Assembly: GCA_022703625.1 (NCBI GenBank)
Contig: JAKLDH010000002.1
Span: 1,462 to 65,461, forward strand
Direction: 5' to 3'
Length of the DNA stretch: 64,000 nucleotides
DNA from: Cyanobacteriota bacterium
Lineage (GTDB): Bacteria > Cyanobacteriota > Vampirovibrionia > Gastranaerophilales > UBA9971
Part shown: positions 38,947 through 61,196 of the stretch, piece by piece
Layout: every line of letters begins with the position of its first letter
Position numbering within the stretch: position 1 is the first letter of the stretch
Translations under genes and position numbers: made by a program
Notes under the pieces: generated by a model
Told to the model about the DNA's origin: nothing
Database searches by the model: none
The model's input: the letters and a program-made list of their open reading frames with translations, nothing else

Positions 38947-39342
38947 ATGTTAGAGGCTAAATTACAAAACTTTGTTGAAAAAGAACTCTCCTGCAGGTGC
39001 TGCGGGAAACTTATCATCAACCATGAAACACTGATATGCCTGCAGGCGTTCAGGTATTTCCTTAATCGCAAATATGGCAGGAATATCATGATAACACCTT
39101 CTTGCGGGACACGCTGCTATCAACACAACATTGATGTTGGCGGAGCTAAAGGCAGTTTCCACTTAACGGGGCAGGCATTTGATATAACATCGCCTGATAT
39201 AACTTACAGACAAATTTACGAAGCTGCTTTAGAAAGTAAATTGTTTTCAACCGTTATCAGGTACGATAAATCCTTGTTTGTCCACGTGGATACAAGAAAA
39301 AGAAAAAATTATGCAATTGAAAGCTGGGTTGAAAACAAATGA
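38947..39342 (+). CDS. endolysin, peptidase M15A (zinc D-Ala-D-Ala carboxypeptidase-like)
   Basis: 131 aa. SFHLTGQAFD and VHVD are the H-x6-D ... H zinc ligand pattern of Peptidase_M15_3. Confidence 0.8.
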   Translation: MLEAKLQNFVEKELSCRCCGKLIINHETLICLQAFRYFLNRKYGRNIMITPSCGTRCYQHNIDVGGAKGSFHLTGQAFDITSPDITYRQIYEAALESKLFSTVIRYDKSLFVHVDTRKRKNYAIESWVENK

Positions 39343-39394
39343 TTCTTGTGTCGAAACGATACGAAATAGCTGGAAATCTCACTAATTCTGCACA

Positions 39395-39414
39395 TTGCAC
39401 GGTAATGTGTGATT
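39395..39414 (+). promoter_or_regulatory. cassette leader L1 (subfamily A): TTGCACGGTAATGTGTGATT
   Basis: It lies 24 nt upstream of ATG 39438. Related copies are at 40668, 41540, 61153(-) and 61870(-). TAATGT could be a -10 element. Confidence 0.45.
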
Positions 39415-39437
39415 GTCAGAATAAAGGAGAAGTACTT

Positions 39438-40328
39438 ATGACAACAAAAAACACAAACGAAGAAGTCATTTTTAAGAGCAGAAAAGACTTTAGAGCATTT
39501 GTAGCAGAAGATGGTAATGAAATGCTTGAGGAAATTATGGGATCAAAAATCCAAATCCTCTCGGTCTCAGAAAGTTCATTAGGGGAACAGCCGGATATTC
39601 TGGCAGTAGCGAATATCCACGAAAAAACAATTATCGAGTGCGACTTAAAACAGAATATTAAGACACTTGCAAACCTGTTAATGCATACGGCAGCGTACAA
39701 AGCAAAGCATATTATCTGGTGCATTAATCAGGAAACACCGGAGGCAATGGAAACAGCTAATATGCTCAGTAAGTTTAACCAACATGAAGTGAAGCTATAT
39801 GTGGTTAAATGCCATATTGAAAACAATGAGGTCAAGCTAAAAGCACTCATAAAGCCAGACCCGAATAATTACCAGAAGCCAGCAGGCAAAATAACCGACA
39901 CAAAACAAAAGCAAAATGAATTCTGGCAGGCATTTAGCGGTTACATTAACGATAAAAACCTTCCCATAAAAATAACCCCTGCACCGCAACACTGGCAGTA
40001 CATAACAATCGGCATATCAGGAGTATCTATCCAGCTCACTGTTAACACTTCAAAAAATAACCTCGGCTGTGAACTCCTGATTGCCAATAATAAGGAACTT
40101 TTCAAAAAACTAGAAGTTGATAAAGCACGGATTGAAAAGCAGCTTAAAAATATAAATCTGGACTGGCAGGCACTTGAAGGTAAAAAATCCTCCCGCATAA
40201 GAACCACGCTGGACTTTGATATTACTGATAAAGAAAACCTCGAACAGGGGTTTATCTGGCTGATTGATACTGCCAACAGGTTTAAGGAAGTGTTTACAGA
40301 ATATCTAAAAGGAGAAGCCAATGGATAA
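39438..40328 (+). CDS. PD-(D/E)xK-like N-terminal domain + DUF4268-like C-terminal domain protein
   Basis: Start at ATG 39438, after AAGGAG. The C-terminal half (FWQAFSGYINDKN...HWQYITIGISGVSIQLTVNTSKNNLGCELLI...LDWQALEGKKSSRI) fits the DUF4268 pattern. The N-terminal half is homologous to 60157..60594. Confidence 0.65.
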   Translation: MTTKNTNEEVIFKSRKDFRAFVAEDGNEMLEEIMGSKIQILSVSESSLGEQPDILAVANIHEKTIIECDLKQNIKTLANLLMHTAAYKAKHIIWCINQETPEAMETANMLSKFNQHEVKLYVVKCHIENNEVKLKALIKPDPNNYQKPAGKITDTKQKQNEFWQAFSGYINDKNLPIKITPAPQHWQYITIGISGVSIQLTVNTSKNNLGCELLIANNKELFKKLEVDKARIEKQLKNINLDWQALEGKKSSRIRTTLDFDITDKENLEQGFIWLIDTANRFKEVFTEYLKGEANG

Positions 40329-40563
40329 TGCTGAAAAAATTGCAAGGCTTGAAGATATACAGACTAAAATTGAAGAACAGGTTTATGAGGCAAGGGGTTT
40401 ACTCGAAGGCACAGGCATAACCCTGCAGCGAGCGGAGCGTTACTGGATAGCCCAAATCCTGACAGCACTTGATAATGATGACGAGTATGTCGGCGGATCA
40501 ATGTTTAGCCTGCAGGACTCAATAAACGAATTAAAAGGGGAAGATGATGCAGACAGTGAGTAA
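40321..40563 (+). CDS. hypothetical acidic protein
   Basis: 80 aa. It overlaps the upstream gene by 8 nt, so it is probably translationally coupled. Confidence 0.5.
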   Translation: MDNAEKIARLEDIQTKIEEQVYEARGLLEGTGITLQRAERYWIAQILTALDNDDEYVGGSMFSLQDSINELKGEDDADSE

Positions 40564-40577
40564 ATGTAACCATAAAG

Positions 40578-40615
40578 GACTGCCGTACCTTTCCGGCAGC
40601 CCTTTCTTTCTTTTT
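40578..40615 (+). terminator. rho-independent terminator
   Basis: Stem CTGCCG (40580-40585) / CGGCAG (40594-40599), followed by a T-rich run CCCTTTCTTTCTTTTT. Confidence 0.6.
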
Positions 40616-40667
40616 CGAATGTGTTCTTATGATACGGTTATTGCACAAATGGCTTTAAAAACAGAAA

Positions 40668-40687
40668 ATGCACGGTAATCTGTGAAT
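40668..40687 (+). promoter_or_regulatory. cassette leader L2 (subfamily A): ATGCACGGTAATCTGTGAAT
   Basis: Preceded by CTTTAAAAACAGAAA, shared with L3. It lies 28 nt upstream of ATG 40716. Confidence 0.45.
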
Positions 40688-40715
40688 ATAGAGAATAAAC
40701 AAAAGGAAAACAAAG

Positions 40716-40877
40716 ATGAATAAAGAATTACAAAGAATCGCAAAAACAATATTAGACCTTGAAACCTTAGAAACCAGAAACTCAGACAGCCTTGATTTTA
40801 AAGAGCAGGCAGTCTGGAATATCAAGGAAGCCTTAGAACAGGCTTACAAAGCAGGACAGCAATCAGTAAGTAAATAA
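40716..40877 (+). CDS. small conserved hypothetical protein (53 aa)
   Basis: Below the ORF-track cutoff. MNKELQRIAKTILDLETLETRNSDSLDFKEQAVWNIKEALEQAYKAGQQSVSK. A close paralog lies at 60959..61123(-), which supports a real gene. Confidence 0.65.
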   Translation: MNKELQRIAKTILDLETLETRNSDSLDFKEQAVWNIKEALEQAYKAGQQSVSK

Positions 40878-40892
40878 ATAAAGGAGATCAAA

Positions 40893-41120
40893 ATGATTAA
40901 AGTAACTATGAGTACACTCCCTGAATTACGAGAAGTACAGGTAAACCCGCAGGATATAGAAATCAAAGACGGAAAATATTACGTAAACGGCATACAACAT
41001 TCAATCACAGTAAGCGGAGCAGAAATACTCCATATCTTTTATCAAGGAGCACAGTTTGCCTTAGATAAAAAAGTAACTAAAAAGCAAGCAGCTGAAACAT
41101 TAACAATAATAAAACGATAA
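40893..41120 (+). CDS. hypothetical protein
   Basis: 75 aa, RBS aaaggag. Confidence 0.5.
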   Translation: MIKVTMSTLPELREVQVNPQDIEIKDGKYYVNGIQHSITVSGAEILHIFYQGAQFALDKKVTKKQAAETLTIIKR

Positions 41121-41131
41121 GGAGAATAACA

Positions 41132-41455
41132 ATGACACAGGAAAAAACAATTGAAACAATTTATTACCAGTGCAGCAGTCAATCCTTAGTTTACAGAGAG
41201 CTTTATATCCTTAATAATAAAAAGATAAAGCTTGAAATTAAATCGGATTCTTACCGCAACCAGTGCTATGCAAGGACTTATGTATTAAAAGATGACGAGT
41301 GGAATATTTTATACAACGTGCCTTATGCCGAGATGGAAACTAAAGAAGGCTTAATATACCATCATGATTATAAAAAATGCCCACAAAAGGCACACAGCGA
41401 GTTTAGAAGCGATATTTTAAGGCTTAAAGACCTGACAAAACAACTATTGTCATAA
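41132..41455 (+). CDS. hypothetical protein, family shared with 61233..61568
   Basis: 107 aa, RBS aaggag. Shared core KLKLEIKSDSY(R/H)xQCYAR(T/A)YVLK(D/N)DEW. Confidence 0.65.
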   Translation: MTQEKTIETIYYQCSSQSLVYRELYILNNKKIKLEIKSDSYRNQCYARTYVLKDDEWNILYNVPYAEMETKEGLIYHHDYKKCPQKAHSEFRSDILRLKDLTKQLLS

Positions 41456-41463
41456 TTAATTAA

Positions 41464-41493
41464 CCTGCCATCTTCCGGCAGGCTTTTCCTTTG
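41464..41493 (+). terminator. rho-independent terminator
   Basis: Stem CCTGCC (41464-41469) / GGCAGG (41477-41482), then CTTTTCCTTTG. Confidence 0.65.
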
Positions 41494-41539
41494 TGTCGAA
41501 ATGATTCTTCTTAACCTGAAAACACTTTAAAAACAGGAA

Positions 41540-41559
41540 ATGCACGCTATTGTGTGAAT
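41540..41559 (+). promoter_or_regulatory. cassette leader L3 (subfamily A): ATGCACGCTATTGTGTGAAT
   Basis: TTTAAA lies 16 nt upstream of TATTGT, giving -35/-10-like elements. It is followed by GTAAGCAATAAAGGAG and ATG 41583. Confidence 0.5.
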
Positions 41560-41582
41560 GTAAGCAATAAAGGAGCAAAACA

Positions 41583-41792
41583 ATGATGACACTTACAGAT
41601 AAAGAAAAAAGAAACTTTGAAAAATTTAGAGCCGAGTTAACAAGAATCTCCCAAAAGTATGGGGTAGCTATAAAATCAATAGGCGGGTTAATGGTGGGTG
41701 ACATAGCAGATATCGAATATAACGACGACCCTGAAAGCGGAGATTTATATCCTGAGATTTTAATGTGGCAGGAAGACGTAGAGGAGTTATAA
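41583..41792 (+). CDS. hypothetical protein, family shared with 60606..60953
   Basis: 69 aa. Shared core YG(V/I)A(I/V)KSIGG...IEY(N/S)DD(P/E)xSGDL. Confidence 0.65.
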   Translation: MMTLTDKEKRNFEKFRAELTRISQKYGVAIKSIGGLMVGDIADIEYNDDPESGDLYPEILMWQEDVEEL

Positions 41793-41794
41793 AA

Positions 41795-42004
41795 ATGAAA
41801 AGTTACAGAATGACTGACACATGGGAACTCGAAGAATCCTACACACTTACTGAACCGGAACTATATAAACTTGCATACGACTTATACTGCGGAGAACCGG
41901 TGGGAGAAGAATTAAAGCAGGCGAAAAAAGAATTCGGCAGTGATATTCCGAAAGTTATCGCCTATGTTGAAAAAGAATGCGGGTGGAGAGCAGAGACAAT
42001 ATAA
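41795..42004 (+). CDS. hypothetical protein
   Basis: Start at ATG 41795, after GAGGAG. 69 aa. Confidence 0.5.
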   Translation: MKSYRMTDTWELEESYTLTEPELYKLAYDLYCGEPVGEELKQAKKEFGSDIPKVIAYVEKECGWRAETI

Positions 42005-42097
42005 ACAACTAATTGTTTTTATAATCAAACGTTTATATTCAAATGTAAAAAATCCTCTAAAATCTGAATTTTAATCACTTAAAAAGTTTTTATATTA

Positions 42098-42994
42098 ATG
42101 GGAAGTATGCATGCGGGAAGTAATTTGGCCTTAAGAGTAGCAGAATTTAATCCAATAAATACAATACAGGATAGTAAATATAATGCTGTTCCGGTTAATA
42201 ATGCAAATAATTTTATATTTAATAAGCTGAAGGAGGATATAGACAGACTTGACTGCAAAACCAACCCGCACAGCCATACCGACCAAGCCCTGCTTTACGC
42301 TTTAAGTCCACTTCCCCCAGCGAGACGAATAGGCTCTCTTCCTGATACATTGGAAGAAAAAAATTATCTAAGAGCAGGACTGTTACTTAGTATGGCTGCT
42401 GCTAACTTCCCCGGTGATTTAAGGGAGATAGGTATTGCTATTAAAAATCCCTTCCAGAAAAATTCTTTTCAGCACGAATTGTCATTATTTAGGGGAACCT
42501 TTTTAAAAAGATTCCTTGATAATCCATTTATCGAGAAGATTGATAAAACCTTATTTTCTACAAAATTCGGCGAAAAAATAATGGATACAGTTAAAATTGA
42601 AATTGATGATCTTAAATCGATAAAAGGCCCAACTCCTAAAACAGTTTTAAAGGCATTTAAATTCTCCGGCAATGGGGTACAAAAACTGATAGGAAATTCT
42701 CTCTTAAGAATACCAATACTAGGAGTAGCTTTTGGAGGACTTCTTGAATTGCCAGCTATTATAAAATCAGTAACCGATACAAAAGGTTCAGCTTTAGAAA
42801 AAGGAAAATCTCTGAGTAAACAATTAATAAAATCTGCTGGTTATGTTGGATTATCAACATTAGCAATTGGCATTGGTGGAGCTTTATTATTCCCACATGG
42901 TGCAATTTTAGGACTTATCGGAATGGGTGTTGGCTCTAGTATTGCTTTAGTTGCATCTAAAGCACTGAATAAGCAAGTGGATAAATTAGCTTGA
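42098..42994 (+). CDS. membrane protein with Gly-zipper-rich C-terminal helices (AT-rich cargo)
   Basis: 298 aa. The C-terminal region reads LGVAFGGLLELPAII...LAIGIGGALLFPHGAILGLIGMGVGSSIALVA. No clear RBS, so the start is uncertain. Confidence 0.5.
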   Translation: MGSMHAGSNLALRVAEFNPINTIQDSKYNAVPVNNANNFIFNKLKEDIDRLDCKTNPHSHTDQALLYALSPLPPARRIGSLPDTLEEKNYLRAGLLLSMAAANFPGDLREIGIAIKNPFQKNSFQHELSLFRGTFLKRFLDNPFIEKIDKTLFSTKFGEKIMDTVKIEIDDLKSIKGPTPKTVLKAFKFSGNGVQKLIGNSLLRIPILGVAFGGLLELPAIIKSVTDTKGSALEKGKSLSKQLIKSAGYVGLSTLAIGIGGALLFPHGAILGLIGMGVGSSIALVASKALNKQVDKLA

Positions 42995-43264
42995 TTTACT
43001 AATATATTCTCTATAACCTCTTACTGTTTCTCTAAGTCCTTTCTGAACCAGTTTATTAGTCACTTTTTCTGCAGCAGCGTCAACATCTTCAGGAGTTATT
43101 TCATTTTTTTCGAGTTGACGTTCTACCTTGTCACAAAATATTCCAAGATGGTTTAATTTTGTGCCATTAGCTTTTTTGACTAAGTCTTGTACTTCTTTTT
43201 CGCCTTTAAACCCAATTTTATTACCCGTATAATTCGGTATTGCAAAACTTACTTTATTAATCAT
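42986..43264 (-). CDS. hypothetical protein
   Basis: 92 aa, convergent with and overlapping 42098..42994 by 9 nt. Confidence 0.45.
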   Translation of the reverse strand: MINKVSFAIPNYTGNKIGFKGEKEVQDLVKKANGTKLNHLGIFCDKVERQLEKNEITPEDVDAAAEKVTNKLVQKGLRETVRGYREYISKSS

Positions 43265-43389
43265 ATTAAAACCCTTTATTATTTTTTTATCTGATTATAT
43301 AAACCCTGAACATAAAAAAAATTGCTTCTTTTTTTTATTTGAATTTAAACAAAAGTAAACTTAATCCCAATTACTGAGTCTATATCCCA

Positions 43390-43431
43390 ATATGCACGCT
43401 AAAATCACAACGATTAGCAAGCATAAGGAGG
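43390..43431 (+). promoter_or_regulatory. cassette leader L4 (subfamily B): ATATGCACGCTAAAATCACAACGATTAGCAAGCATAAGGAGG
   Basis: Near-identical to 59034-59074(-) and related to 62111-62152(-). It contains the -10-like TAAAAT and the RBS. Confidence 0.5.
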
Positions 43432-43438
43432 TAGAACC

Positions 43439-43753
43439 TTGCAGGAAAATAATTTTAAGACTTTATTGAACGGAGCCAGAAACGATTTAAAAATCGCAGT
43501 TGATGACCTTTTTAATGCGATAGAAATTATCCACGAGGATGTCGAACATCTTAAAGTAAAAACATCCAGACCGGACAAACTTGCAGCTTCGTTACTGTTG
43601 GATTATTTAGGCTGGGAAGAAGGAAATCCCAAAAACAATCTTGAAAGAATTTGCGAAAAAGAAATCCAGCAATATATGAAATGGCTTGAATATTATTGTC
43701 AAAAAGAAGGAATAACGAAGGAGCAGGCGTTAAAGGAAGTTATTGAAGGTTAA
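43439..43753 (+). CDS. hypothetical ~105-aa protein, paralog family member 1
   Basis: TTG start 7 nt after AAGGAGG. It is homologous to 44030..44356 and 58707..59027, with shared DLKIA(V/I)DD, LKVKTS(R/K)PDK and KW(L/I)(E/D)xYC motifs. Confidence 0.65.
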   Translation: MQENNFKTLLNGARNDLKIAVDDLFNAIEIIHEDVEHLKVKTSRPDKLAASLLLDYLGWEEGNPKNNLERICEKEIQQYMKWLEYYCQKEGITKEQALKEVIEG

Positions 43754-43962
43754 AACTTCAATAATTCATAGGGTTCTAACCCAAGGGCAGTCGCTATTCT
43801 TTTTACTTTAGACAATGTTATATCATTTTGAGCCGTTTCAATCATGCTGATTGTTGAGCGGGAAACGTTGGCATCACAGGCTAAATCTTCCTGAGATAAA
43901 CCTTGTTCCTCACGTAAAAATTTGATACGTTTTCCAACTTTTTTGATATATTGCTTGTCCAT
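43750..43962 (-). CDS. XRE-family HTH protein (70 aa)
   Basis: Start taken at ATG 43962 (MDKQYIKKVGKRIKFLREEQGLSQEDLACDANVSRSTISMIETAQNDITLSKV...). The longer ORF-track form is antisense to the next gene. Its stop overlaps the convergent gene's stop. Confidence 0.7.
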   Translation of the reverse strand: MDKQYIKKVGKRIKFLREEQGLSQEDLACDANVSRSTISMIETAQNDITLSKVKRIATALGLEPYELLKF

Positions 43963-44029
43963 AAGAAAATTGTCAGTTATACTGGCATTAGATACAACCA
44001 GCCACACTGACAGAAAAGGAGGTGAAATA

Positions 44030-44356
44030 TTGCAGCATATGGATTTTAAAGACAAACTACAATCGAGCGGAAATCTATTAAAAATTGCAGTCAATGATTT
44101 TGTAGGATTTATGGAACAATTCCACGATGAGTTGCAAGTTATTAAAGGCAACCCGCTAAAGCCTGACAGAAAATCAGCACTTGCCCTGCTGGAATACATA
44201 AGCTATGAAGATTCCAGAATAAAAGAAACAGTTGAAACACTTGGCGGGCAACAATTGGAAAAATATTTTGAATGGATTAATGCTTACTGCAAAGAATATA
44301 ACTGCACTCAAGAACAGGCATTAAAGCGTGTTCTTGAAGGAACAGAAAAAATATAA
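44030..44356 (+). CDS. hypothetical ~105-aa protein, paralog family member 2
   Basis: TTG start at 44030, 7 nt after AGGAGG. This is the same TTGCAG start context as 43439. The next ATG at 44039 is an alternative start. Confidence 0.65.
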   Translation: MQHMDFKDKLQSSGNLLKIAVNDFVGFMEQFHDELQVIKGNPLKPDRKSALALLEYISYEDSRIKETVETLGGQQLEKYFEWINAYCKEYNCTQEQALKRVLEGTEKI

Positions 44357-44383
44357 AAGGCGGGATTTTATATTTCCCGCCTT
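44357..44383. terminator. bidirectional hairpin terminator between convergent genes
   Basis: Perfect 9-bp stem AAGGCGGGA (44357-44365) / TCCCGCCTT (44375-44383). Confidence 0.6.
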
Positions 44384-44415: not shown

Positions 44416-44718
44416 TTAGGATGCAAGCCGTTCCGATTCTTCGTTTCTTTTATGTAACCACGCCAAGCGTTTTATATAGCATTCCGTAACCTCACACTCA
44501 AGAGCCAACTGCATTCTGCTTTTCTTGCTACCGTCATAATTCCTGCAAATATAGCTATTCCTGATTTTTTTAAGTGCATTGCTCGGTATGTTAATTACTA
44601 CCCCTGGCAGGTCATTTAGTAGCGTCAGTGCAAATTCTATTCCATATAAATCTGCAATTATTCTTATGTCTTCATTTGGTAAATCTTCAAGATTTAAATT
44701 TTGTTGCCAGATTTTCAT
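44416..44718 (-). CDS. Mor-family transcription activator
   Basis: Start at ATG 44718, after AAAGGAG. The C-terminal HTH reads RNSYICRNYDGSKKSRMQLALECEVTECYIKRL. A paralog lies at 58408..58710. Confidence 0.75.
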   Translation of the reverse strand: MKIWQQNLNLEDLPNEDIRIIADLYGIEFALTLLNDLPGVVINIPSNALKKIRNSYICRNYDGSKKSRMQLALECEVTECYIKRLAWLHKRNEESERLAS

Positions 44719-45086
44719 ACCGTAAATCTCCTTTTGAATCATTATTTAGAGTGAATTTATATTCAAATGAAAGCCTGCGCCTTCCTGAGAAAACTCAGGC
44801 TTTCTGATTAACAAAGGAACATTGGTTGAAAAATCTGGACAGGATAGTTAAGCAACTATCAGCCTAATTTGTGAATCTTTTTTGTATCCCTTACCTGCCT
44901 CCCGTGTTTATATCTATATTATATATTTATTTATATATTCAAACTTCCTCTATTTGGAGTATTTACAGCCCTCAATCTCTTTATTTATATCACTTCATGC
45001 CATTTATAAATGGTCAAATTTACACTATTACTAAAAAATTAAACAATAAATGTTTTTTTTGCTTATTTTTCGTTAAAATTAAACAT

Positions 45087-45599
45087 TTAAAACCTTCTAA
45101 CTGCTCGTGCCGGATTAAAAGGGATATATCTATCCTTAAGAGATTTTTCAAGAATACTTCCAAGCAACTTCACAATATTATCAATGCTTTTGGGAGAAAG
45201 ACCTTCAGTCAATTTCTGTTCAATAAACTGGTCAATATTTTCCGGCTTAATTTGTGTAACCCTAAATTCAATAAAAAATGGAATAAGATGTTTATTCAGA
45301 CTGCATTTATAGGATTTAAAAGTGGATGCTGTACATTTGTTTTCAGCTTCACGCATAAAGTTTTTTGATGCGGTTTCAAACCCTATTATTCCTTTTCTTA
45401 ATTGGGGTCTTTTGGTTTTCCTGACATTAGGAATATGCCTATATTTATCCCAGCTTAATTTTTGGATAATTTTGTCTGATAAGAGTTTATCAAGGATTTT
45501 AGCTATTTCATTCTCGTTTAAATCAGTCATTACAGCAATATCATCCAGCGTGAATATGTTTAGCCCTTTTATTATTTTCAAAACTTTGTCTTGAATCAT
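45087..45599 (-). CDS. wHTH + integrase SAM-like core-binding domain protein (no catalytic domain)
   Basis: 170 aa. FMREAENKCTASTFKSYKCSLNKHLIPFF...ENIDQFIEQKLTEGLSPKSIDNIVKLLGSILEKSLKDRYIPFNPARAV is the N-terminal SAM-like domain pattern of tyrosine recombinases. The ORF stops right after it. Confidence 0.7.
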   Translation of the reverse strand: MIQDKVLKIIKGLNIFTLDDIAVMTDLNENEIAKILDKLLSDKIIQKLSWDKYRHIPNVRKTKRPQLRKGIIGFETASKNFMREAENKCTASTFKSYKCSLNKHLIPFFIEFRVTQIKPENIDQFIEQKLTEGLSPKSIDNIVKLLGSILEKSLKDRYIPFNPARAVRRF

Positions 45600-46281
45600 T
45601 CTTTAATATCTCCTTTATTATGTTTTCATCAATCAATTCAATATTATTGGTCTTGGCAACAGCTTCCAGTCTGCTAATAATTCGCACAATCTGCCTGAAC
45701 CTGTTTGCCTGGGTGTGAATAAAATTTACAGCAGGTTCTGTTATTTCTACTTCGCAAAGCTGTGTAACTATATCCTGTACATCATTTACAGAGAACGCTT
45801 TAAATTGGATTATTTCTGACAGCCTGTCATATAAATGCCTGTATTTTTGCAGTTTCTTTTCAGCTAATGTCATTCCAACAAAAATAATCGGGACATTCGT
45901 TTTATCATGAATGTCCCGAATTGTTTCTATTGTTTTCTGGTCGCCTGCAAGGTAATCAACCTCGTCAATAATTATCATCTGAGGTCGCTCTATAAGTTTA
46001 TTTACAGCCTGTTTAAACAATTCTGATGTCCAGTATTGCGGAATCTCTCCGAGTTCCTCAACAAGTTCTTCAAGAAACCATCTCCCGCTCATAAGGTTTG
46101 CGCTTCGTATGTAGACAGCATCATTTTGTGCTGCAAGCCATAAGGCTGTTCGTGATTTTCCAAGTCCCGGCTCTCCATAAACAAGTGCCATTCTTGAAAC
46201 CCCGTCAGGTTTATTCTGCAGGGAATTTATCAGGGCTATAAAGTTTTTAACGTTTTGTGTTTTTACAAAGATTTTACGCAT
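45541..46281 (-). CDS. MuB/TniB-like AAA+ transposition ATPase (copy 1)
   Basis: Start at ATG 46281 by comparison with copy 2. Walker A GEPGLGKSRTA and Walker B IIIDEVD. Confidence 0.8.
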   Translation of the reverse strand: MRKIFVKTQNVKNFIALINSLQNKPDGVSRMALVYGEPGLGKSRTALWLAAQNDAVYIRSANLMSGRWFLEELVEELGEIPQYWTSELFKQAVNKLIERPQMIIIDEVDYLAGDQKTIETIRDIHDKTNVPIIFVGMTLAEKKLQKYRHLYDRLSEIIQFKAFSVNDVQDIVTQLCEVEITEPAVNFIHTQANRFRQIVRIISRLEAVAKTNNIELIDENIIKEILKNDSRQSFENNKRAKHIHAG

Positions 46282-46288
46282 ATATATT

Positions 46289-48304
46289 TTATTCTCCATA
46301 TATCATTCTAAATTCATCACTGTTTTTGTAGTTCTGCAACCACTTTCGCTCTTCTGCTGAAGTGCAGCCATTCTCCATAAGCCACTCGTAGCGTTCATAG
46401 TTATTCAAAAATACAGGACGCAGTTTTTCTGGAATTGCTATCGGTTCTTTTTTAACTCCTTCCGGTGGAATTTCTTGCGGGATAGTTTCTTCAATCATTT
46501 GTGTCTCTAAAAATTTGATATCTTCTTTAGGCAGGTATTTTTTGATTGTCCGAAGTGTTCGATTACGTAATTGGGCTGGCTTTTTAATCTTTTGGATAAA
46601 ATCTTCCCTGTCTTTAATATCGCCAAGATGATATGCCATCGGGTGCGTTCCTGTAACTCTTTTTGCTGTGCATAAATATTCGCCTCTTGTTGAATAGACC
46701 TTGATTTTACTGAGGTTAAATAGACTGTATCTAATCATTACTCTGTCCCTGAGTCCGTATAAAGCATCGCTGTTGTAATCAGTGTTTAAAAACCTTATGC
46801 CGTTGCGATTTATTGTCTTTACCTCATGCGCCATCATTAGCTCATCAAGCTCATTGATGCCTATATTCTGCCTTATTCTACCCTCAAAAACCTGCTTTAT
46901 GCTCATTGTTCTATCATTAGGACATGGCTGGGAGTGCCTGTAGCTTAACCACGCATCAACAAACCGGATTGTTTCTTCAACAGTCGGGATATATCCCTGA
47001 TTGATTTTGTCATATAACTCTTTATGCAGTTTTTCATTGCGTTTCATATGAGCCGGTTTGTTTGCGATATTGCTGCCGGTGTATGTGGGTAGCAGTTTTT
47101 CAAACTCTTCCTGAAATTCTTTGAAGAAGCGTTCTATGACTTTAGCCCGGGCATTGTAGGGCTTGGCATAAACAGGCTTTATTCCAAGTTTGGTGTATAT
47201 TCCACTAAATCCGGCTTCTGTGAAGTCAGTTGATTTGGAAAAATATTTTGCTTTAAAAGCCTTTCCATTGTCCTGATAAACAATTCTTGGAATCATATCA
47301 AGGTTAATAATTGCCATACGCAGGGCTGAAGCTATACATTGGGTATTCTCTTCAAGCATAATTTCATATCCACACAAATAACCTGACTTCCAGTCAAGGA
47401 AGGCAACAATAACCGCCCTGCACGGTCTGCCTGTAAAGGGATTTAAGACAAGGAAGTTTAAACGGTGTCCGTCTGCTACTAAAACATCCCCGACTTCAAT
47501 TTTTGAAATGTCCCTGGATAAATATGGTTCGACCTTATCCCGAAGTGCCTTTTCCCCTTCTCGCATAAGTATCCACTTGTCATAATTCTGTCTCCTGAAA
47601 TATTCTGCGTATCTACGGAAGGTTATTGGTTTTGGAATATCTTCAATTCCTTTCTTTTCAAGAATATGGGTTGTAAGTTTTATTGCCTTACCAATGCTGA
47701 ATTGGTTTGGATGCAGGAGCAGTTTTAAAAATATTCCGATTTCTTCTTCTGTCAGCGTAGTTTTATACTCATCTGAATTTGTGTAATGGTACTGTGGGAC
47801 AAGAGCTTCCCAGTTTTCGTATTCAGAATAAAGTTTGTTCCAGCGCAGCAGGCTGCCTCTGGAGGTTTTACCAATAAGTCGGAACACATTTTTAAGATAT
47901 TCACCTGAGTTGTACAAATCAAGGAATAATTTATCCCCTTCGTGTTTTGGACTATGTTTATTCCTGAATTTTATCCATTCCTGAATCAAATCAACTTTTG
48001 CAAGAGCAACAGTCTTTGCCTGCGCCGGAATGAATCCTGATTCAGTCTGAACAGGTTTTTCAATCGGCAGAAGAATGTCATGATTTACCGTTTCAACTAT
48101 TTCCCTGTAATAAGTGTTTTTGTAAACCTCCTGAACCTGTGGCTCAAGGGAGGATAAAAGTATCTCATAACTTTTTCCTCCCTGAGTTTTTGTTTCCCTG
48201 AAAATATATTTACCTTTGCTTAAAGCTATTCTTAATGCTCGTGAAGTTACCTGTTTTATTTCTGCGATTGTTTTCAGGTCAACCCATAAGTTATTATCAC
48301 TCAT
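46289..48304 (-). CDS. Mu-type DDE transposase (copy 1)
   Basis: 671 aa. N-terminal HTH-like region, and DDE candidates in VLVADGH, YQDNGKAF and AKVIERFF. Confidence 0.85.
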   Translation of the reverse strand: MSDNNLWVDLKTIAEIKQVTSRALRIALSKGKYIFRETKTQGGKSYEILLSSLEPQVQEVYKNTYYREIVETVNHDILLPIEKPVQTESGFIPAQAKTVALAKVDLIQEWIKFRNKHSPKHEGDKLFLDLYNSGEYLKNVFRLIGKTSRGSLLRWNKLYSEYENWEALVPQYHYTNSDEYKTTLTEEEIGIFLKLLLHPNQFSIGKAIKLTTHILEKKGIEDIPKPITFRRYAEYFRRQNYDKWILMREGEKALRDKVEPYLSRDISKIEVGDVLVADGHRLNFLVLNPFTGRPCRAVIVAFLDWKSGYLCGYEIMLEENTQCIASALRMAIINLDMIPRIVYQDNGKAFKAKYFSKSTDFTEAGFSGIYTKLGIKPVYAKPYNARAKVIERFFKEFQEEFEKLLPTYTGSNIANKPAHMKRNEKLHKELYDKINQGYIPTVEETIRFVDAWLSYRHSQPCPNDRTMSIKQVFEGRIRQNIGINELDELMMAHEVKTINRNGIRFLNTDYNSDALYGLRDRVMIRYSLFNLSKIKVYSTRGEYLCTAKRVTGTHPMAYHLGDIKDREDFIQKIKKPAQLRNRTLRTIKKYLPKEDIKFLETQMIEETIPQEIPPEGVKKEPIAIPEKLRPVFLNNYERYEWLMENGCTSAEERKWLQNYKNSDEFRMIYGE

Positions 48305-48419: not shown

Positions 48420-48824
48420 TTAATTAATTCCAAAAAATTTTTTATTGCCTTGCTGCAATTTGAGGAACTCAGCTCTTAATCTTGTGGCTATATCTTCATT
48501 TGAGTCTAATAAATATATTTTATCTGGACAGATGATATTTTCATTTTCTTCACCTTTATTGTTGCTACTATCAAAATAAGAATAATCTGTGTAAACATCA
48601 TAAATTCCGTGATTTAAAATTTTCTGAACATAATATTCAAAGGAATTTTTTATATTATAAAAAAAGCATATTTGTCTATGGTTTCCATTTTGTTCAATTC
48701 CCTGAGCATCAACTTCCCTTACGGTTTTTCCACGGTCAGAAATATCAGAACTATTTGCAAATACATGTACATCAGCTAAATCTGCTGGATTGTAATATAA
48801 CCAGTCACAGTGAGGATGAAGCAA
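48420..48824 (-). pseudogene. AT-rich ORF with TTG start and no RBS; possible gene remnant
   Basis: 134-aa ORF with no recognisable family and no SD. It lies between the two head-to-head transposase genes. Confidence 0.25.
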
Positions 48825-49071: not shown

Positions 49072-49269
49072 TTTTTGAAAAGCTGGAAATAGCCGGAAGT
49101 TCGTTTTAAAAATTTTACAATTATCAGGAAGTTTTAAATAAAATATTCCTGCTTCTATTTATTTGAATGATTCAGAACAGACATAAATGTCGGAAAATGA
49201 CTTTAATTCTGAGCTATAGGATTTATAATGCCAATGACGCACTAATCCAAGCGAAAGAGGCAAAATATT

Positions 49270-51279
49270 ATGAATCCCAATATTATCTGGATTGATTTAA
49301 AAACAGCAGCGGAGATAAAAGATATTACTCCACGAGCCTTGAGATTAGCTCTTGCAAAGGGTAAATATACTTCTCGAGAATCCATTACTCAAGGCGGAAA
49401 AAGCTATGAAATTCTTTTATCTTCACTTGAGCCAAGAGTTCAGGAGATTTACAAAAATAAATATTATCAGGAAATAGTTGAACTGGAAGCCCAGATTATT
49501 CATATAACAAAACCTGAACCAATCGAATCAGGCTTTATTCCTGAAACAGCCAGAACAGTTGCACTTGCAAGATTAGATTTAATTCAAGAATGGCAACGGT
49601 TTAGAAAAGAGCATAAGCCTAAGAATAAAGGTGATAAACTATTTCTTGATTTATACAACTCAGGAGAGTATCTTAAAACTATTTTTCAGCTAATCGGTTC
49701 AACCTCAAGAGGAAGCCTTCAACGCTGGCATCGAAGTTATACAGAATATGAAAGCTGGGAAGCTTTAGTTCCTCAGTATAAATATACAAGTTTTAACGAG
49801 TATAAAACAATTTTATCGGAAGAAGAAATTGGAATATTTTTAAAAATTCTCCTGCACCCGAATCAATTTAATATCGGCAAGGCAATAAAACTTACAAAAC
49901 ATATTCTTGAAAAAAGAGGGTTTACTGATATACCTCAGCCGATTACATTTCGCAGATACGCTGAGTGGTTCAGGAAAAACAATTATGACAAGTGGGTTTT
50001 AATTAGAGAAGGTGAAAAAGCACTTGCTGATAAAGTTTCTCCATATATAAAAAGAGATATTTCAAAAATCAAAGTAGGTGAAATTCTTGTAGCTGACGGT
50101 CATAAGCTAAATTTTCTTGTACTAAACCCATTTACAGGCAAACCCTGTAGGGCAACAATTGTAGGTTTCTTAGACTGGAAATCAGGATATTTTGTAGGTT
50201 ATGAAATTATGCTTGAAGAAAATATTCAATGCATCGCCTCAGCTCTTAGAATGGCAATTATTAACCTTGATATAATTCCTCTTATTTCTTATCAGGATAA
50301 CGGCAGAGCTTTTAAAGCAAAATATTTCAGCGAATCCGCTGATTTTACGGAAGCAGGATTTAACGGAATATACACTAATCTTGGAATAAAACCAGTCTAC
50401 GCTAAACCTTACAATGCTAAAGCGAAGGTTATCGAAAGATTTTTTAAAGAATTTCAGGAAGAATTTGAAAAACTTCTGCCTACATATATAGGAAGCAGTA
50501 TAGAGAATAAACCGGCACATATGAAAAGGAATGAAAAATTCCACCTTGAATTGTATAACAGAATTAACAAGGGCTACGTTCCAACAATTGAAGAAGCAAT
50601 AAAGCTAATCGACTGCTGGCTTGATTACAGACACTCTCAACCCTGCTCCAATGATAGAAGCAAAACAATAAAAGAAGTTTTTGAATCAAGAGAACGGCAA
50701 AATATAGATAAGTCAAAACTTGATGATTTGATGATGGCTTATGAGGTAAAAACTATCCACCGTAACGGCATCAGGTTTTTAAGCTCCGATTATAACAATG
50801 ATTCACTTTATGGCTTAAGAGACAGAGTAATGGTTAAATACAGCCTGTTTGACCTCTCCAAAATTAAGGTTTATTCAACAAAAGGCGAATATTTATGCTC
50901 AGCTAAAAGAGTAACAGGAACTCACCCAATGGCTTATCATATGGGTGAAGTTAAAGATATGGAGGATTTTAAGCAAAAGATTCAAAAACAAAAACGGCTT
51001 AAAAATAGAACTTTAAGAACTATAAAGAAATTCTTACCTAAAGAAGATATTAAATTTCTTGAAACCCAGATGGATTTAGAAAGAATAGAGCAGGAAATCC
51101 CTGCAATAGAAGTCAAAAGCGAACCTCTGATTTTAGAAGATAAATTAAAACCTGTATTTATGAATAATTACGAAAGGTATGAATGGCTTATGAAAAATGG
51201 ATGCACAAGTCCTGAAGACCGCAGCTGGCTTCAAGAGTATAAAAATAGCGAAGAATATCAATTAATCTATGGGGAATAA
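49270..51279 (+). CDS. Mu-type DDE transposase (copy 2)
   Basis: 669 aa, collinear with copy 1 and roughly three-quarters identical by eye. Confidence 0.85.
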   Translation: MNPNIIWIDLKTAAEIKDITPRALRLALAKGKYTSRESITQGGKSYEILLSSLEPRVQEIYKNKYYQEIVELEAQIIHITKPEPIESGFIPETARTVALARLDLIQEWQRFRKEHKPKNKGDKLFLDLYNSGEYLKTIFQLIGSTSRGSLQRWHRSYTEYESWEALVPQYKYTSFNEYKTILSEEEIGIFLKILLHPNQFNIGKAIKLTKHILEKRGFTDIPQPITFRRYAEWFRKNNYDKWVLIREGEKALADKVSPYIKRDISKIKVGEILVADGHKLNFLVLNPFTGKPCRATIVGFLDWKSGYFVGYEIMLEENIQCIASALRMAIINLDIIPLISYQDNGRAFKAKYFSESADFTEAGFNGIYTNLGIKPVYAKPYNAKAKVIERFFKEFQEEFEKLLPTYIGSSIENKPAHMKRNEKFHLELYNRINKGYVPTIEEAIKLIDCWLDYRHSQPCSNDRSKTIKEVFESRERQNIDKSKLDDLMMAYEVKTIHRNGIRFLSSDYNNDSLYGLRDRVMVKYSLFDLSKIKVYSTKGEYLCSAKRVTGTHPMAYHMGEVKDMEDFKQKIQKQKRLKNRTLRTIKKFLPKEDIKFLETQMDLERIEQEIPAIEVKSEPLILEDKLKPVFMNNYERYEWLMKNGCTSPEDRSWLQEYKNSEEYQLIYGE

Positions 51280-51281
51280 AA

Positions 51282-52082
51282 ATGAAAAAGACTTTTGTCA
51301 GAACTCAAAATGTTAAAAACTTTATCTCGCTTATGAACTTGCTTCAAAGTAAACCTGATGGAGTTCCAAGAATGGCGTTGGTTTATGGAGAGCCTGGACT
51401 TGGTAAATCAAGAACAGCTCTTTGGTGGGCTGTAAAAAATGATGCAGTATATTTAAGAAGCTCCAATATGATGTCAGGAAGGTGGTTTCTGGAAGAGCTT
51501 GTTGAAGAACTGGGTGAAACTCCTTATTACAAAACATCAGATCTTTTTAAACAATGCGTAAACCAGCTTCTTCAAAATCCAAGAACTATACTGATTGATG
51601 AAATAGATTATTTAACAGGAGATTCAAGAACAATAGAAACCATCAGGGATATTCACGACAAAACCAATGTTCCAATTGTTATGCTTGGAATGAATAAAGC
51701 AGATAAAAAAATTATGCGATACCGCCACGTTTATGATCGTTTAAGCGAAATCCTCAAATTTGAATTATTTTCATTAACTGAGATACAAAGCATTATAACT
51801 CAGCTGTCAGAAGTTGAAATTACTGAGGATGCAGTAACTCTTATTCACTCTCAGGCTAATCGCCTGCGGCAGATAGTCGGGTTGATTAATAAAGCTGAAA
51901 AGTTAGCTCAGGCAAACGGTTTATCAAGAATAAATGCAGAAATTTTAAAAACAGGTGCCAGTGAAATTTTAGCTGAAACAAAAGTAATAAAAGATATAAG
52001 GAATGAGCTTATACAGCTCCCGCATTCGCAAAGGAGTAAAATTGATGAAAGACAAAATCCTCAAAATAGTCAAAGGGCTTAG
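51282..52082 (+). CDS. MuB/TniB-like AAA+ transposition ATPase (copy 2)
   Basis: 266 aa with GEPGLGKSRTA and LIDEID motifs. Confidence 0.8.
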   Translation: MKKTFVRTQNVKNFISLMNLLQSKPDGVPRMALVYGEPGLGKSRTALWWAVKNDAVYLRSSNMMSGRWFLEELVEELGETPYYKTSDLFKQCVNQLLQNPRTILIDEIDYLTGDSRTIETIRDIHDKTNVPIVMLGMNKADKKIMRYRHVYDRLSEILKFELFSLTEIQSIITQLSEVEITEDAVTLIHSQANRLRQIVGLINKAEKLAQANGLSRINAEILKTGASEILAETKVIKDIRNELIQLPHSQRSKIDERQNPQNSQRA

Positions 52083-52560
52083 AAAATTTACTATTGAAGA
52101 TATATCCATAATTGCAGAACTTGATGAAGAGGAAATTTATCCTTTAATTGAGCAGATGGTATCGGAGCAGAAAATAATTCAAATAAGCCATGATCAGTAT
52201 ATGAAAGCTGAAAAAATTATAAAAACAAAAAGGGAAACAACTAAAAAAGGAAAAATCGGTTTTAAAAAAGCGGCTCAGAATTTTATGACAGAGGCTGAAA
52301 ATAAATGTACGCCATCAACTTTTAAATCCTATAAAAGTGCATTTAATAAACATTTAAGCCCATTTTTTCAAGAATTTAGAATATGCGAAATTAAACCTGA
52401 AAATATTGATGAATTTATAGAACAAAAAATAGAGGAAGGGCTTTCAAATAAAACTATAGATAATATTGCCAAATTACTTGGCAGTATTCTGGAGAAGGCT
52501 CTTAAAGACAGGTATATTCCTTTTAATCCTGCAAGAGCGGTTAAAAAGCTTTATCTATAG
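52045..52560 (+). CDS. wHTH + integrase SAM-like core-binding domain protein (copy 2)
   Basis: Start at ATG 52045, after AAAGGAG. It is collinear with 45087..45599 and again ends just after ...FNPARAV. Confidence 0.7.
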   Translation: MKDKILKIVKGLRKFTIEDISIIAELDEEEIYPLIEQMVSEQKIIQISHDQYMKAEKIIKTKRETTKKGKIGFKKAAQNFMTEAENKCTPSTFKSYKSAFNKHLSPFFQEFRICEIKPENIDEFIEQKIEEGLSNKTIDNIAKLLGSILEKALKDRYIPFNPARAVKKLYL

Positions 52561-52561
52561 C

Positions 52562-54251: not shown

Positions 54252-54275
54252 TTGTTCCTAAAAAATACTTAACAT

Positions 54276-54338
54276 ATGTACTATCTTGTATTGACAAGTT
54301 GGTACAAATGGGAATAGAATAATTAAACAAATGTACTA
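54276..54338. promoter_or_regulatory. early operator/promoter region (TGTAC-core repeats; TTGACA-18-TAGAAT)
   Basis: ATGTACTA at 54276-54283 and 54331-54338, and GGTACAAAT at 54301-54309. The -35 TTGACA lies at 54291-54296 and the -10 TAGAAT at 54315-54320, facing the ner-like gene. Confidence 0.5.
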
Positions 54339-54361
54339 ACTCTAATATAAGATTACCACAA

Positions 54362-58407: not shown

Positions 58408-58710
58408 ATGGAACTTAAACCATGGATGCAAAATTTAATGCCGGCAGATATGCCAAATTCCGAATTAAAAGAACTTGCTGAAGAATTTGGCATTCAATCT
58501 GCGTTGGAAGTTATTTCAGCGTGGGCTGGTCTTATTGTAAGCGTTCCAAAACAACCTTTTAGGGATTTATTAAACAAATATATTATTAACAATTATGATG
58601 GTACAAGGGCATCAATTGTTAAACTTGCCAAAGAATGCGAAGTTACTGACAGATATATTTACTATCTTTTAAAAAAGTTGAAAACGGCTAAAAATAGCTC
58701 TTCGATTTAA
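58408..58710 (+). CDS. Mor-family transcription activator
   Basis: 100 aa. NNYDGTRASIVKLAKECEVTDRYIYYLLKK is the C-terminal HTH. Paralog of 44416..44718. Confidence 0.75.
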   Translation: MELKPWMQNLMPADMPNSELKELAEEFGIQSALEVISAWAGLIVSVPKQPFRDLLNKYIINNYDGTRASIVKLAKECEVTDRYIYYLLKKLKTAKNSSSI

Positions 58711-59033: not shown

Positions 59034-59074
59034 TTCCTTATGCTTGCTAACAGGTGTAATATTAGCTTGCATAT
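59034..59074 (-). promoter_or_regulatory. cassette leader L6 (subfamily B)
   Basis: The reverse complement is ATATGCAAGCTAATATTACACCTGTTAGCAAGCATAAGGAA, near-identical to L4. It overlaps the 3' end of the upstream AlbA_2-like gene. Confidence 0.5.
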
Positions 59075-61123: not shown

Positions 61124-61152
61124 AATCTTAAATCCTTGTGTTTATTGCTTAC

Positions 61153-61172: not shown

Positions 61173-61196
61173 TTCTCATACTTCAAGCTGAAAGAC

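Follow-up and report, generated by a model that had tools for sequence, protein, structure and literature searches.

The question raised by this locus is what organises the small genes that follow the lysin gene of a transposable prophage. It lies in a 64,000-nt window (the whole stretch of DNA analysed) of contig JAKLDH010000002.1, from a Cyanobacteriota bacterium of the GTDB lineage Gastranaerophilales. The window has a GC content of 36.9% and consists almost entirely of Mu-like prophage DNA. One prophage, P1, carries an array of small genes headed by repeated leader sequences on the forward strand, and a second, P2, carries its counterpart on the reverse strand. An earlier note on this DNA had taken the units for mobile promoter-plus-gene cassettes exchanged between phages. 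We consider it somewhat more probable than otherwise that the leaders are composite terminator/promoter modules of an early-promoter type, that a dimeric factor acts on their palindrome and that they also serve as recombination joints.

Conserved leaders precede the gene units

The degenerate motif TGCAMGSTAW occurs nine times in the window against 1.45 occurrences expected, and none of 100 shuffles reached nine; six of these matches are leaders (39396, 40669, 41541 and 43393 on the forward strand, 59071 and 62149 on the reverse strand). When the upstream regions of unit-initial genes were aligned, conservation extended over ~100-115 bp, from what had been described as extra upstream boxes through to the ATG. 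The boxes, GATACGAAA and TGTGTCGAAA, are present, but rather than being separate elements they form the two halves of a single 17-bp imperfect palindrome, TGTGTC-N5-GATACR, and the unit is longer than had been recognised. The palindrome is followed by a weak -35-like hexamer, TAnnnT, the invariant core TGTSAWTGT and AAGCAATAAAGGAG, which is conserved up to the ATG; a conserved short 5' untranslated region (UTR) with a strong Shine-Dalgarno sequence precedes the start codon.

An nhmmer model built from non-window copies only recovered five A-type leaders at E = 2e-15 to 3e-8, and its only other match at E <= 10 was found upstream of a transposase gene (49163-49272, E = 1e-3). These values, together with the motif counts, show that the conserved motif, first noticed by inspection, is real. 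Altogether, the window contains five A-type leaders of ~110 bp and three shorter B-type leaders with the common segment TGCAMGC-TAAnAT...TTAGCAAGCATAAGGAGG, each heading a tightly packed group of small genes (Table 1). Genes within a unit overlap or are separated by 2-15 nt, as against 95-152 nt in the gaps that hold leaders, and all leader copies are intergenic and end in a Shine-Dalgarno sequence and start codon. The leaders previously assigned to the opposite strand in P2 were found as well, except that the copy at 62111 is B-like with an inverted palindrome. Neither palindrome nor leader match was detected in the structural-operon promoter region (22.4-22.75 kb), in keeping with the earlier description.

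Spacing, core and predicted terminators of the leader

Across 29 aligned A-type copies, the invariant positions are TGT in the palindrome, an A five columns before the core, and T-G-T-.-A-.-T-.-T; in eight B-type copies they spell TAA.AT. A sigma-70 -10 hexamer has an A at -11 and a T at -7, which the invariant A and the core's first T match; the -10-like hexamers read TAATGT, TAATCT and TATTGT in P1, TAAACT and TACTGT in P2, and TAAAAT and TAATAT in the B type. SAWTGT with its upstream TG is a possible extended -10 in almost every A-type copy.

The distance from palindrome to core is 53-55 in 22 copies and 63-64 in nine, with no intermediate values. Because the long form was reached via different inserted sequences, with at least four different hairpin solutions, this pattern argues for a length constraint of one helical turn. 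Pattern scans of IMG/VR were run with a leader signature of palindrome and core: at gaps of 45-56, real leaders were found at 12 of 16 loci, whereas the control scans at gaps of 27-44 and 57-80 returned 21 loci and not one real leader. Counted to the first base of TAnnnT, the palindrome centre lies 48-50 or 58-59 bp upstream, which corresponds to about -60 or -70. The palindrome is inverted at 62171-62187 and in the related locus L084 (9936), both times before B-type leaders and 36-37 bp from the -10.

Two clean hairpin terminators had been proposed in the P1 array, and intrinsic terminators are indeed predicted there, ending units 1 and 2 and standing immediately 5' of the palindromes of leaders 2 and 3. 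Terminator-like hairpins (-9 to -17 kcal/mol, with T-rich runs after them) are placed differently in P2 and several relatives, between the palindrome and the -35-like hexamer. Since predicted terminators stand 5' of the leaders or inside them, the downstream genes would need a new promoter. The array is thus one of short units, each with a conserved promoter-like leader and most of them bounded by predicted terminators, much as first described.

In one subfamily of leaders from related loci, the L090 type, an inverted repeat of up to 12-13 bp with some compensatory changes brackets the -35-like hexamer. It was seen in L091 (7650-7684), L104 (9688-9722), L093, L096, L103 and L108, and not in the window copies.

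A related sequence precedes transposase genes

The leader is not exclusive to the cassettes: a related sequence stands directly upstream of P1-type transposase genes. One copy, which precedes the transposase gene of a third element, P3, aligns with the whole leader through a clean 10-column insertion that gives a spacing of 63; its palindrome (49158-49174) has a degenerate left half, and a perfect TATAAT (49224-49229) occupies the TAnnnT position. A second copy lies upstream of the P1 transposase gene. The corresponding regions of L130 and L131, two further P1-type elements, align with the leader below nhmmer significance; a search with the P3 transposase for further upstream copies found only these two loci. 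In both, the ~450 bp between the phage-host junction and the transposase gene hold no other gene, and the early promoter must therefore lie within them. Because of this position directly upstream of transposase genes, the leader looks like a phage early-type promoter, and we infer from it the best positional argument that the leader is a promoter, of early rather than late type.

Other regulatory regions of the two prophages contain different sites. In the late divergent promoter region of P1, the palindrome TTTACnnnGTAAA is repeated three times with a 24-bp period (22546, 22594 and 22618; 22546-22640), with related half-sites nearby, and is a plausible candidate for the target of the Mor-like late activator. 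The P2 repressor-Ner intergenic region (54252-54361) carries two copies of ATGTACTA and one GGTACAA, likely operators of the P2 repressor. They differ from the leader palindrome, which was on this ground rejected as an operator of the CI-type repressor of P2.

Phages with one or the other type of early region, in which the transposases are only 23% identical, nevertheless retain the same leader palindrome. Since it is conserved across unrelated early regions, an immunity-specific operator is disfavoured, and the pattern argues for a host factor or a conserved array-encoded factor. The two binders suggested in the earlier note fare poorly as candidates. As regards the Mor-like protein, the late promoter region has a different palindrome, and some relatives have no Mor gene beside the array: a Mor/C homologue is present in P1, P2, L002, L084, L085, L090 and L108, and was not seen beside the arrays of L093 and L096, which are partial loci. 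The XRE gene, for its part, is lacking in relatives that have leaders.

Further site types were rejected. A Mor/C-type site does not agree with a palindrome at about -60/-70 instead of -43.5, absent from the late promoter region, and a transposase end site does not agree with the unrelated terminal TGTATTTTATCATG at the phage-host junctions of L130 and L131. Sigma-54 promoters have an invariant GG at -24 and GC at -12 (TGGCAC-N5-TTGC); TGCACG-N4-TGTG in the P1-type leaders invited this comparison, and the GG/GC doublets are absent and other subfamilies have no similar sequence at those columns. In an informal comparison, the palindrome half-sites resemble CRP sites (TGTGn/nCACA) at a spacing one base too long, and the consensus sites of NtcA, IHF and LexA do not appear to fit the palindrome.

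Leaders coincide with points of exchange

Homology at the DNA level between the two arrays is confined to two blocks, 40666-40874 with 61174-60965 (77%) and 43380-43702 with 59084-58764 (70%), and both begin inside a leader and extend through the gene. Comparison of P1 with L084 gave a similar picture. L084 has an extra 101-aa gene between the lysin gene and leader 1, on either side of which homology is lost close to where the lysin gene ends and picks up at 39346, with the first base of the palindrome region. Homology also resumes at 40653, inside leader 2; it breaks at 41580-41586, the boundary of leader 3 and its gene, where L084 has an extra gene between the two, with a breakpoint also at 41491; and it is recovered from 43393 onwards, where TGCACGC of the B leader starts. 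The last of these is recurrent, as P2 and L002 break at the TGCAAGC of their B leader. Moreover, there is 85% identity over ~100 bp between P1 leader 3, in front of the 41583 family, and an L084 leader in front of a DUF6900 gene.

The proposal that leader and gene travel together therefore holds, with the P1/P2 blocks starting inside leaders and the breakpoints of relatives lying at leader edges. We infer that the leaders may act as homology joints for recombination; the breakpoint pattern matches that reported for the promoter-early stem-loops (PeSLs) of T4-type phages, with which they are compared below.

Distribution among related phages

About 15 contigs with such arrays (GC 29-38%), from IMG/VR viral sequences and metagenome-assembled genomes (MAGs), were collected by protein searches with two array families, the palindrome-core DNA pattern and nhmmer filtering. 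The MAG contigs were assigned to Melainabacteria, Gastranaerophilales and other taxa, the last probably binning noise. Each contig has two to four leaders; without exception these lie past the last of the late genes, ahead of the convergent early operon, and point the same way as the late genes. The first genes behind leaders belong to at least six families, including the DUF4268/PDC-S11, DUF6900, 41583, 61581 and 40893 families, and the order of array gene families varies from phage to phage. Among cultured phages, a blastn search of the array against INPHARED gave no DNA match.

The units are common to phages that otherwise differ in tail, lysin and early region. The differences in tail and lysin noted earlier for P1 and P2 are confirmed: an M15 lysin stands against M23 and a sheath, tape measure and baseplate against a Phage-tail_3/J-like protein. 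They are, however, no free-floating collection of morons: the array is best described, on its sequence, as a syntenic module of one Mu-like lineage, a fixed slot filled from a small recurrent pool of gene families.

Proposed mechanism and alternatives

Promoter activity, start site, the factor on the palindrome and its sign, expression timing and a role in recombination are all read from sequence here, and would combine as follows. A host RNA polymerase of sigma-70 type would start at each module, and the units would be transcribed independently of the late operon. Output would be set by a dimeric DNA-binding protein on the palindrome, which, with TAnnnT as the -10, would be a class-I-type upstream site centred at about -60 or -70, one helical turn apart. 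The same promoter type would drive the P1-type transposase operon, and the cassettes would be wired like early rather than late genes. The repeated module would supply homology by which recombination re-pairs leaders with genes and shuffles units within and between phages. As to timing, the defence-like cargo described below suggests expression from the prophage, while the transposase link suggests early-lytic expression.

Several observations weigh against this mechanism. The -10 can be placed in more than one way: P1-type, L002-type, B-type and transposase copies agree with a TAnnnT whose final T is the first of the core, whereas in the L090-type subfamily the -11 A and -7 T fit only a hexamer 2 nt further downstream (nAATGT), or SAWTGT with an upstream TG. 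A generic sigma-70 scan flagged one of the eight leaders (62164-62137, TTTACT-16-TAAAAT), the -35-like hexamers being weak, and found no enrichment of promoter-like sites in the region (13 against 18.9 expected). Given the common descent of the copies, a few indel events instead of selection for helical phase may account for the two spacing classes; in the B type, the 36-37 bp between palindrome and -10 fall 11-12 bp, not 10.5 bp, below the short class. No candidate for the binding protein emerged, and no factor encoded in all leader-bearing loci was found, most of these loci being partial. Finally, the defence assignment of the cargo refers to PADLOC candidate families, known here from sequence matches.

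A more ambitious version of the mechanism is, in our view, possible though rather doubtful. Here, the leaders would be the small, portable regulon of an uncultured clade of transposable phages: one dimeric factor, of the host or encoded in the array, on a palindrome one or two turns upstream of an unusual core, would couple the transposase operon to defence and accessory cassettes, and the 110-bp module would be the recombination joint at which unrelated Mu-like phages trade cassettes.

The strongest competitor, unlikely but deserving attention, keeps the module and reverses its logic. If the leaders were copies of an early promoter and the palindrome a repressor operator, the cassettes would be silent in the lysogen and fire with the transposase operon immediately upon induction or infection, as early lytic genes for host takeover or anti-defence of the kind guessed in the earlier note. 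Leader-related sequences upstream of the transposase genes of P1, P3, L130 and L131 suit this idea, as those operons must be off in a lysogen, and so does the transposase copy that combines the best -10 (TATAAT) with the weakest palindrome. The geometry does not: ~50-60 bp separate the palindrome centre from the -10-like element downstream, and the core promoter is clear of it. An immunity-specific operator should also have diverged between the unrelated early regions across which this palindrome is kept, P2, with its CI/S24 repressor, has operators of another type between c and ner, and the two defence-candidate cargo genes make most sense when expressed from the prophage.

Improbable, in our estimate, is that the leaders act in RNA, as processing, stabilising or translation-enhancing elements inside a long late transcript and not as promoters. 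The first P1 leader starts 5 nt past the lysin stop codon with no terminator between, conservation continues through the 5' UTR to the Shine-Dalgarno sequence, and the inverted repeats of the L090-type subfamily give a moderate signal (60.6% of cells paired against 53.7% in shuffles and 22-41% in slid controls). Yet RNAalifold found zero conserved pairs in the 29 A-type or eight B-type copies, and an Rfam scan of 38-64 kb gave no match. Predicted terminators precede the leaders or sit within them, and the same element stands before the first gene of an early operon, where there is no upstream transcript. A palindrome found in either orientation and at a quantised distance from the core is, moreover, a property of DNA.

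Marginally less probable again is a palindrome that serves as a recombination or transposition site for a recombinase or transposase, with the array built site-specifically, either integron-like or from relics of phage ends, and the promoter-like part incidental. This would account for homology breakpoints at leader edges, for the phage-integrase SAM-like proteins encoded beside the transposase and ATPase genes of P1-type elements and for the degenerate palindrome in the left-end region of these elements. Leaders are equally present without an integrase-like gene (L002, L085, L108 and P2), though, there is no attC-like conserved hairpin, the palindrome is unlike the terminal sequence of the phage ends, and breakpoints at several positions in the leader speak for homologous exchange rather than a fixed crossover. 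An integron-type cassette array was rejected in its own right: there is no conserved hairpin, the cassettes have promoter-like leaders and an integrase SAM-like fragment occurs only in P1-type elements.

Very improbable is that the repeats have no function, being neutral copies of one intergenic region that came along when genes were duplicated or transferred: common descent does link all copies, which are restricted to a single phage lineage, but flanking genes have diverged to 30-50% amino acid identity or are unrelated while leader columns stayed invariant in 29 copies from ~15 phages, the same leader fronts non-homologous genes, and the length classes are discrete.

Comparison with known systems

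PeSLs of T4-type phages are composite promoter/terminator repeats that allow modular shuffling by homologous recombination, and their promoter and terminator activities and the formation of mini-circles were demonstrated experimentally (Arbiol et al. 2010, PMC2839356; Comeau et al. 2014, PMC4122927). Like the leaders, they are repeated intergenic composites that extend from an upstream stop codon to the Shine-Dalgarno sequence and start of the next gene, and combine a sigma-70-type promoter with a stem-loop terminator at variable positions (both predicted here). They are likewise concentrated in a plastic region of small unknown genes, here the 3-5 kb array from the lysin gene to the early operon, in which most ORFs match a DUF at best, and are points of homologous exchange at which genes are shuffled between related phages. 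They differ in being found in lytic T4-type phages, whereas the phages considered here are Mu-like, with DDE transposase, AAA ATPase, Mor and GemA, so that the leaders are an analogue and not a member of the PeSL family. PeSLs, in addition, have a consensus early promoter with only an AT-rich upstream region, while the leaders have a predicted promoter below consensus strength and a 17-bp palindrome at quantised distance, which would imply a dedicated DNA-binding factor. Unlike PeSLs, modules of the leader type are also found before a transposase operon.

In the concept of Hendrix and Juhala, the morons of temperate phages, lambdoid ones among them, are promoter-gene-terminator units; the classical ones were acquired one by one and have unrelated promoters and, usually, a deviant base composition. 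The array units are moron-like in that each has a promoter-like sequence and most a predicted terminator, in their place behind the late operon and in a cargo unrelated to virion production. Unlike morons, they share one conserved leader family, are mostly phage-like in GC and recur across the lineage. One gene, the 356-aa Schlafen/AlbA_2 gene of P2, resembles a moron in both deviant GC and presence/absence polymorphism.

In Mu, the early promoter Pe has an upstream IHF site and the middle and late promoters, including that of the right-end com-mom accessory operon, depend on Mor or C. The present phages share with Mu transposition, a Mor-family activator at the end of the early operon, and an accessory operon past the tail and lysis genes with its own regulated promoter, composed of a weak -35 and an upstream protein site (both predicted here). 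Mor/C sites of Mu, in contrast, are dyads near -43.5 that overlap the -35, and differ in this from the leader palindrome centred at about -60 or -70. Also unlike Mu, the late promoter region here has a different palindrome, and late module and early operon face in opposite directions. The defence hotspots of P2-like and P4-like prophages (names unrelated to our numbering), reportedly described by Rousset et al. in 2022, resemble the array as a fixed prophage slot with variable genes, including anti-phage candidates (here PDC-S11/DUF4268 and PDC-S50). The array differs from them in the conserved regulatory repeat inside it and in its small recurrent, not very diverse gene pool.

Should the proposed mechanism be true, mobile regulatory cassettes, a principle described so far for lytic T4-type phages, would structure the accessory and defence region in temperate transposable phages of a poorly known bacterial group as well; the portable regulon would amount to PeSL-like gene shuffling that brings its own regulatory input, in temperate phages whose hosts are Melainabacteria-like. 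The leader signature, palindrome and core at fixed distance, would then help to locate arrays of this kind, with their cargo, in metagenomes, and the scans already separate relatives from background. One palindrome in two spacing classes would also provide a clean system for the study of promoter architecture in poorly known hosts, and the array would offer small conserved proteins together with DUF4268 and Schlafen-like proteins as candidates for defence or host takeover.

Cargo genes

Table 1 Leaders, terminators, array genes and prophage modules of the window
Feature	Position	Strand	Details
P1 A-type leader 1	39343-39437	+	nhmmer E = 1.9e-15; starts 5 nt past M15 lysin stop; palindrome TGTGTCGAAACGATACG 39347-39363; TGCACGG 39396-39402; -10-like TAATGT 39403-39408; core TGTGATTGT 39408-39416; Shine-Dalgarno; ATG 39438
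P1 A-type leader 2	40612-40715	+	nhmmer E = 2.7e-8; palindrome 40620-40636; -10-like TAATCT 40676-40681; core TGTGAATAT 40681-40689; ATG 40716
P1 A-type leader 3	41484-41582	+	nhmmer E = 3.4e-14; palindrome 41492-41508; -10-like TATTGT 41548-41553; core TGTGAATGT 41553-41561; ATG 41583
P1 B-type leader	43380-43438	+	TGCACGC 43393-43399; TAAAAT 43400-43405; TTAGCAAGCATAAGGAGG; TTG start 43439
P2 A-type leader, long form	61845-61954	-	spacing 64; nhmmer E = 1.6e-13; palindrome 61949-61933; embedded terminator-like hairpin 61926-61905; core TGTCAATGT 61877-61869; heads 61581-61844 and 61233-61568
P2 A-type leader, long form	61124-61238	-	spacing 63; nhmmer E = 5e-13; palindrome 61230-61214; hairpin GTTTCAG...CTGAAAC; core TGTCATTGT 61159-61151; heads 60959-61123 (DUF6900), 60606-60953 and 60157-60594
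P2 B-type leader	59084-59028	-	TGCAAGC-TAATAT 59071-59059
P2 B-like leader after M23 lysin	62105-62187	-	inverted palindrome 62171-62187; TGCAAGC-TAAAAT 62149-62137; ATG 62104
Leader-related sequence, P3	49152-49269	+	upstream of transposase gene 49270-51279; nhmmer E = 1e-3
Leader-related sequence, P1	48302-48425	-	upstream of transposase gene 46289-48304; blastn to P3 copy 72%, 71 nt, E = 6e-4
Predicted intrinsic terminator	40580-40599	+	CTGCCG...CGGCAG with T-rich tail; ends unit 1
Predicted intrinsic terminator	41464-41482	+	ends unit 2
Unit 1, 296-aa protein	39438-40328	+	DUF4268 (Pfam E = 6e-26); full-length PADLOC PDC-S11, E = 4e-38
Unit 1, 80-aa open reading frame (ORF)	40321-40563	+	without known family
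Unit 2, DUF6900 protein	40716-40877	+	
Unit 2, 75-aa ORF	40893-41120	+	
Unit 2, phrog_10108 protein	41132-41455	+	
Unit 3, two 69-aa ORFs	41583-41792, 41795-42004	+	first homologous to 60606-60953
Leaderless module, 298-aa protein	42098-42994	+	hydrophobic Gly-rich C-terminus; no Shine-Dalgarno, AT-rich upstream
Leaderless module, 92-aa antisense ORF	42986-43264	-	
104-108-aa all-alpha family paralogues	43439-43753, 44030-44356	+	flank XRE gene
XRE helix-turn-helix gene	43750-43962	-	
P2 106-aa family member	58707-59027	-	convergent with Mor-like gene 58408-58710 (+)
P2 356-aa Schlafen/AlbA_2 protein	59062-60132	-	PADLOC PDC-S50, E = 2e-80
P1 terminase, portal, DNA methyltransferase	~15.5-22.4 kb		leftward module
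P1 late module	22.9-39.34 kb		rightward; tail sheath, tape measure, baseplate and fibre genes, M15 lysin last
P1 small-gene array	39.34-44.36 kb		
P1 hairpin	44359-44381		GGCGGGA-N9-TCCCGCC (sequence read); between array and convergent early operon
P1 early operon		-	convergent with array; DDE transposase, AAA/TniB-like ATPase, integrase-SAM-like protein, Mor-like activator
P1 Mor-like late transcriptional activator	44416-44742	-	final gene of early operon; phrog_836, E = 8.7e-8
P1 DDE transposase	46289-48304	-	with Mu-transposase C-terminal domain
P2 early region	54.4-58.7 kb	+	S24 repressor, Ner-like gene, then transposase, ATPase, GemA, Mor-like
P2 array	58.7-62.2 kb	-	convergent with early genes; M23 peptidase and J-like tail protein (Phage-tail_3) precede

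Five protein families had been listed as shared between the arrays, and four are clear: 40716/60959 (83% identity), 41132/61233 (52%), 41583/60606 (44%), and 43439 and 44030 against 58707 (52% and 39%). The fifth pair, 39438/60157, is a distant match of the N-terminal domain (30% over 97 aa, E = 4e-6), both members matching PADLOC PDC-S11. None of the cargo families corresponds to a known Mu early gene, an outcome that the earlier note had named as one that would refute its reading.

The DUF4268 protein of unit 1 contains a PD-(D/E)XK-like motif, read by eye as PD...DxK (D53, D69, K71), in its N-terminal region; its single-sequence structure model was too poor for use, with a predicted local distance difference test score (pLDDT) of 54. 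For the P2 product of 60157-60594, and likewise for short forms in L084 and L094, the match is limited to the N-terminal half of PDC-S11; the P2 gene is absent at the same place in L002 and L085. DUF4268 is reported to co-occur with GmrSD-type type IV restriction enzymes (PMC4619093) and to be present in the modification-dependent defence nucleases MdgA and MdgB (bioRxiv 10.1101/2025.02.28.640651). In the Schlafen/AlbA_2 gene of P2 the GC content is 24.9%, as opposed to 33-36% for the genes next to it. It lacks its own leader, and L002 and L085 do not have it at the corresponding site; this one gene looks like a classical moron that entered the array recently. It alone deviates in composition, as the other array genes have GC values of 31-44% against 34-41% in the phage blocks.

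The array cargo thus appears to be partly defence-like. Anti-defence or host-takeover functions had been proposed for it, and the only functional leads (PDC-S11/DUF4268 and PDC-S50) point to defence instead. Matches with functional annotation were found neither for DUF6900 and phrog_10108 nor for the 69-aa pair, the 61581 family and the 104-108-aa family. Relatives of the phrog_10108 family are only hypothetical proteins in Pseudomonas YuA-like phages. No significant match came from PDB sequence and profile searches with the DUF4268 protein or with the phrog_10108 and 104-aa families, nor was there one in NCBIfam. The 104-aa family is all-alpha in its structure model (pLDDT 72.7), a fold for which the PDB gave no match.

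The leaderless module (42098-43264) is also present in L083 (1245-2497), and its 298-aa gene is inverted in L084 (8943-9827) relative to P1. Between the divergent XRE gene and the second 104-108-aa paralogue, the intergenic region 43963-44029 contains an inverted repeat, TGTCAG...CTGACA, which is conserved in L084 and L088. The arrangement of the XRE gene and the flanking paralogues suggests a small autoregulated module separate from the A-type leaders.

Prophage context

The layout of P2 is the mirror image of that of P1, and the Mor-like proteins of the two (44416-44742 and 58408-58710) are 39% identical. The hairpin between the P1 array and the convergent early operon is read as a putative bidirectional terminator.

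Three sets of Mu-type transposase and AAA ATPase genes are present in the window, at 45087-48304 (-), 49270-52560 (+) and 54566-57398 (+), which looks like nested or adjacent insertions of transposable prophages. The middle set, with its integrase-like gene, is 60-75% identical to that of P1, and the two are arranged head to head. At 48842, TGTATTTAATCAGG is similar to the terminal sequence of the L130/L131 phage-host junctions, and the following 430 bp are collinear with L130; for these two reasons P3 probably has its start at 48842, where it would abut P1 or be inserted into it. P3 is cut at 52560 (52560-52562), where P2 begins.

The strongest sigma-70-like site of the region (TTGACT-17-TACAAT, 10/12; 48868-48840, reverse strand) points leftward from the presumed end of P3. 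It faces a 134-aa ORF without family match (48420-48824, reverse strand) upstream of the P1 transposase gene. At the other end of P1, the DNA methyltransferase gene (17695-18660, reverse strand; phrog_67, E = 2e-71) adjoins the portal gene, and is possibly relevant to the array, which encodes a DUF4268 protein, a kind linked to modification-dependent restriction.

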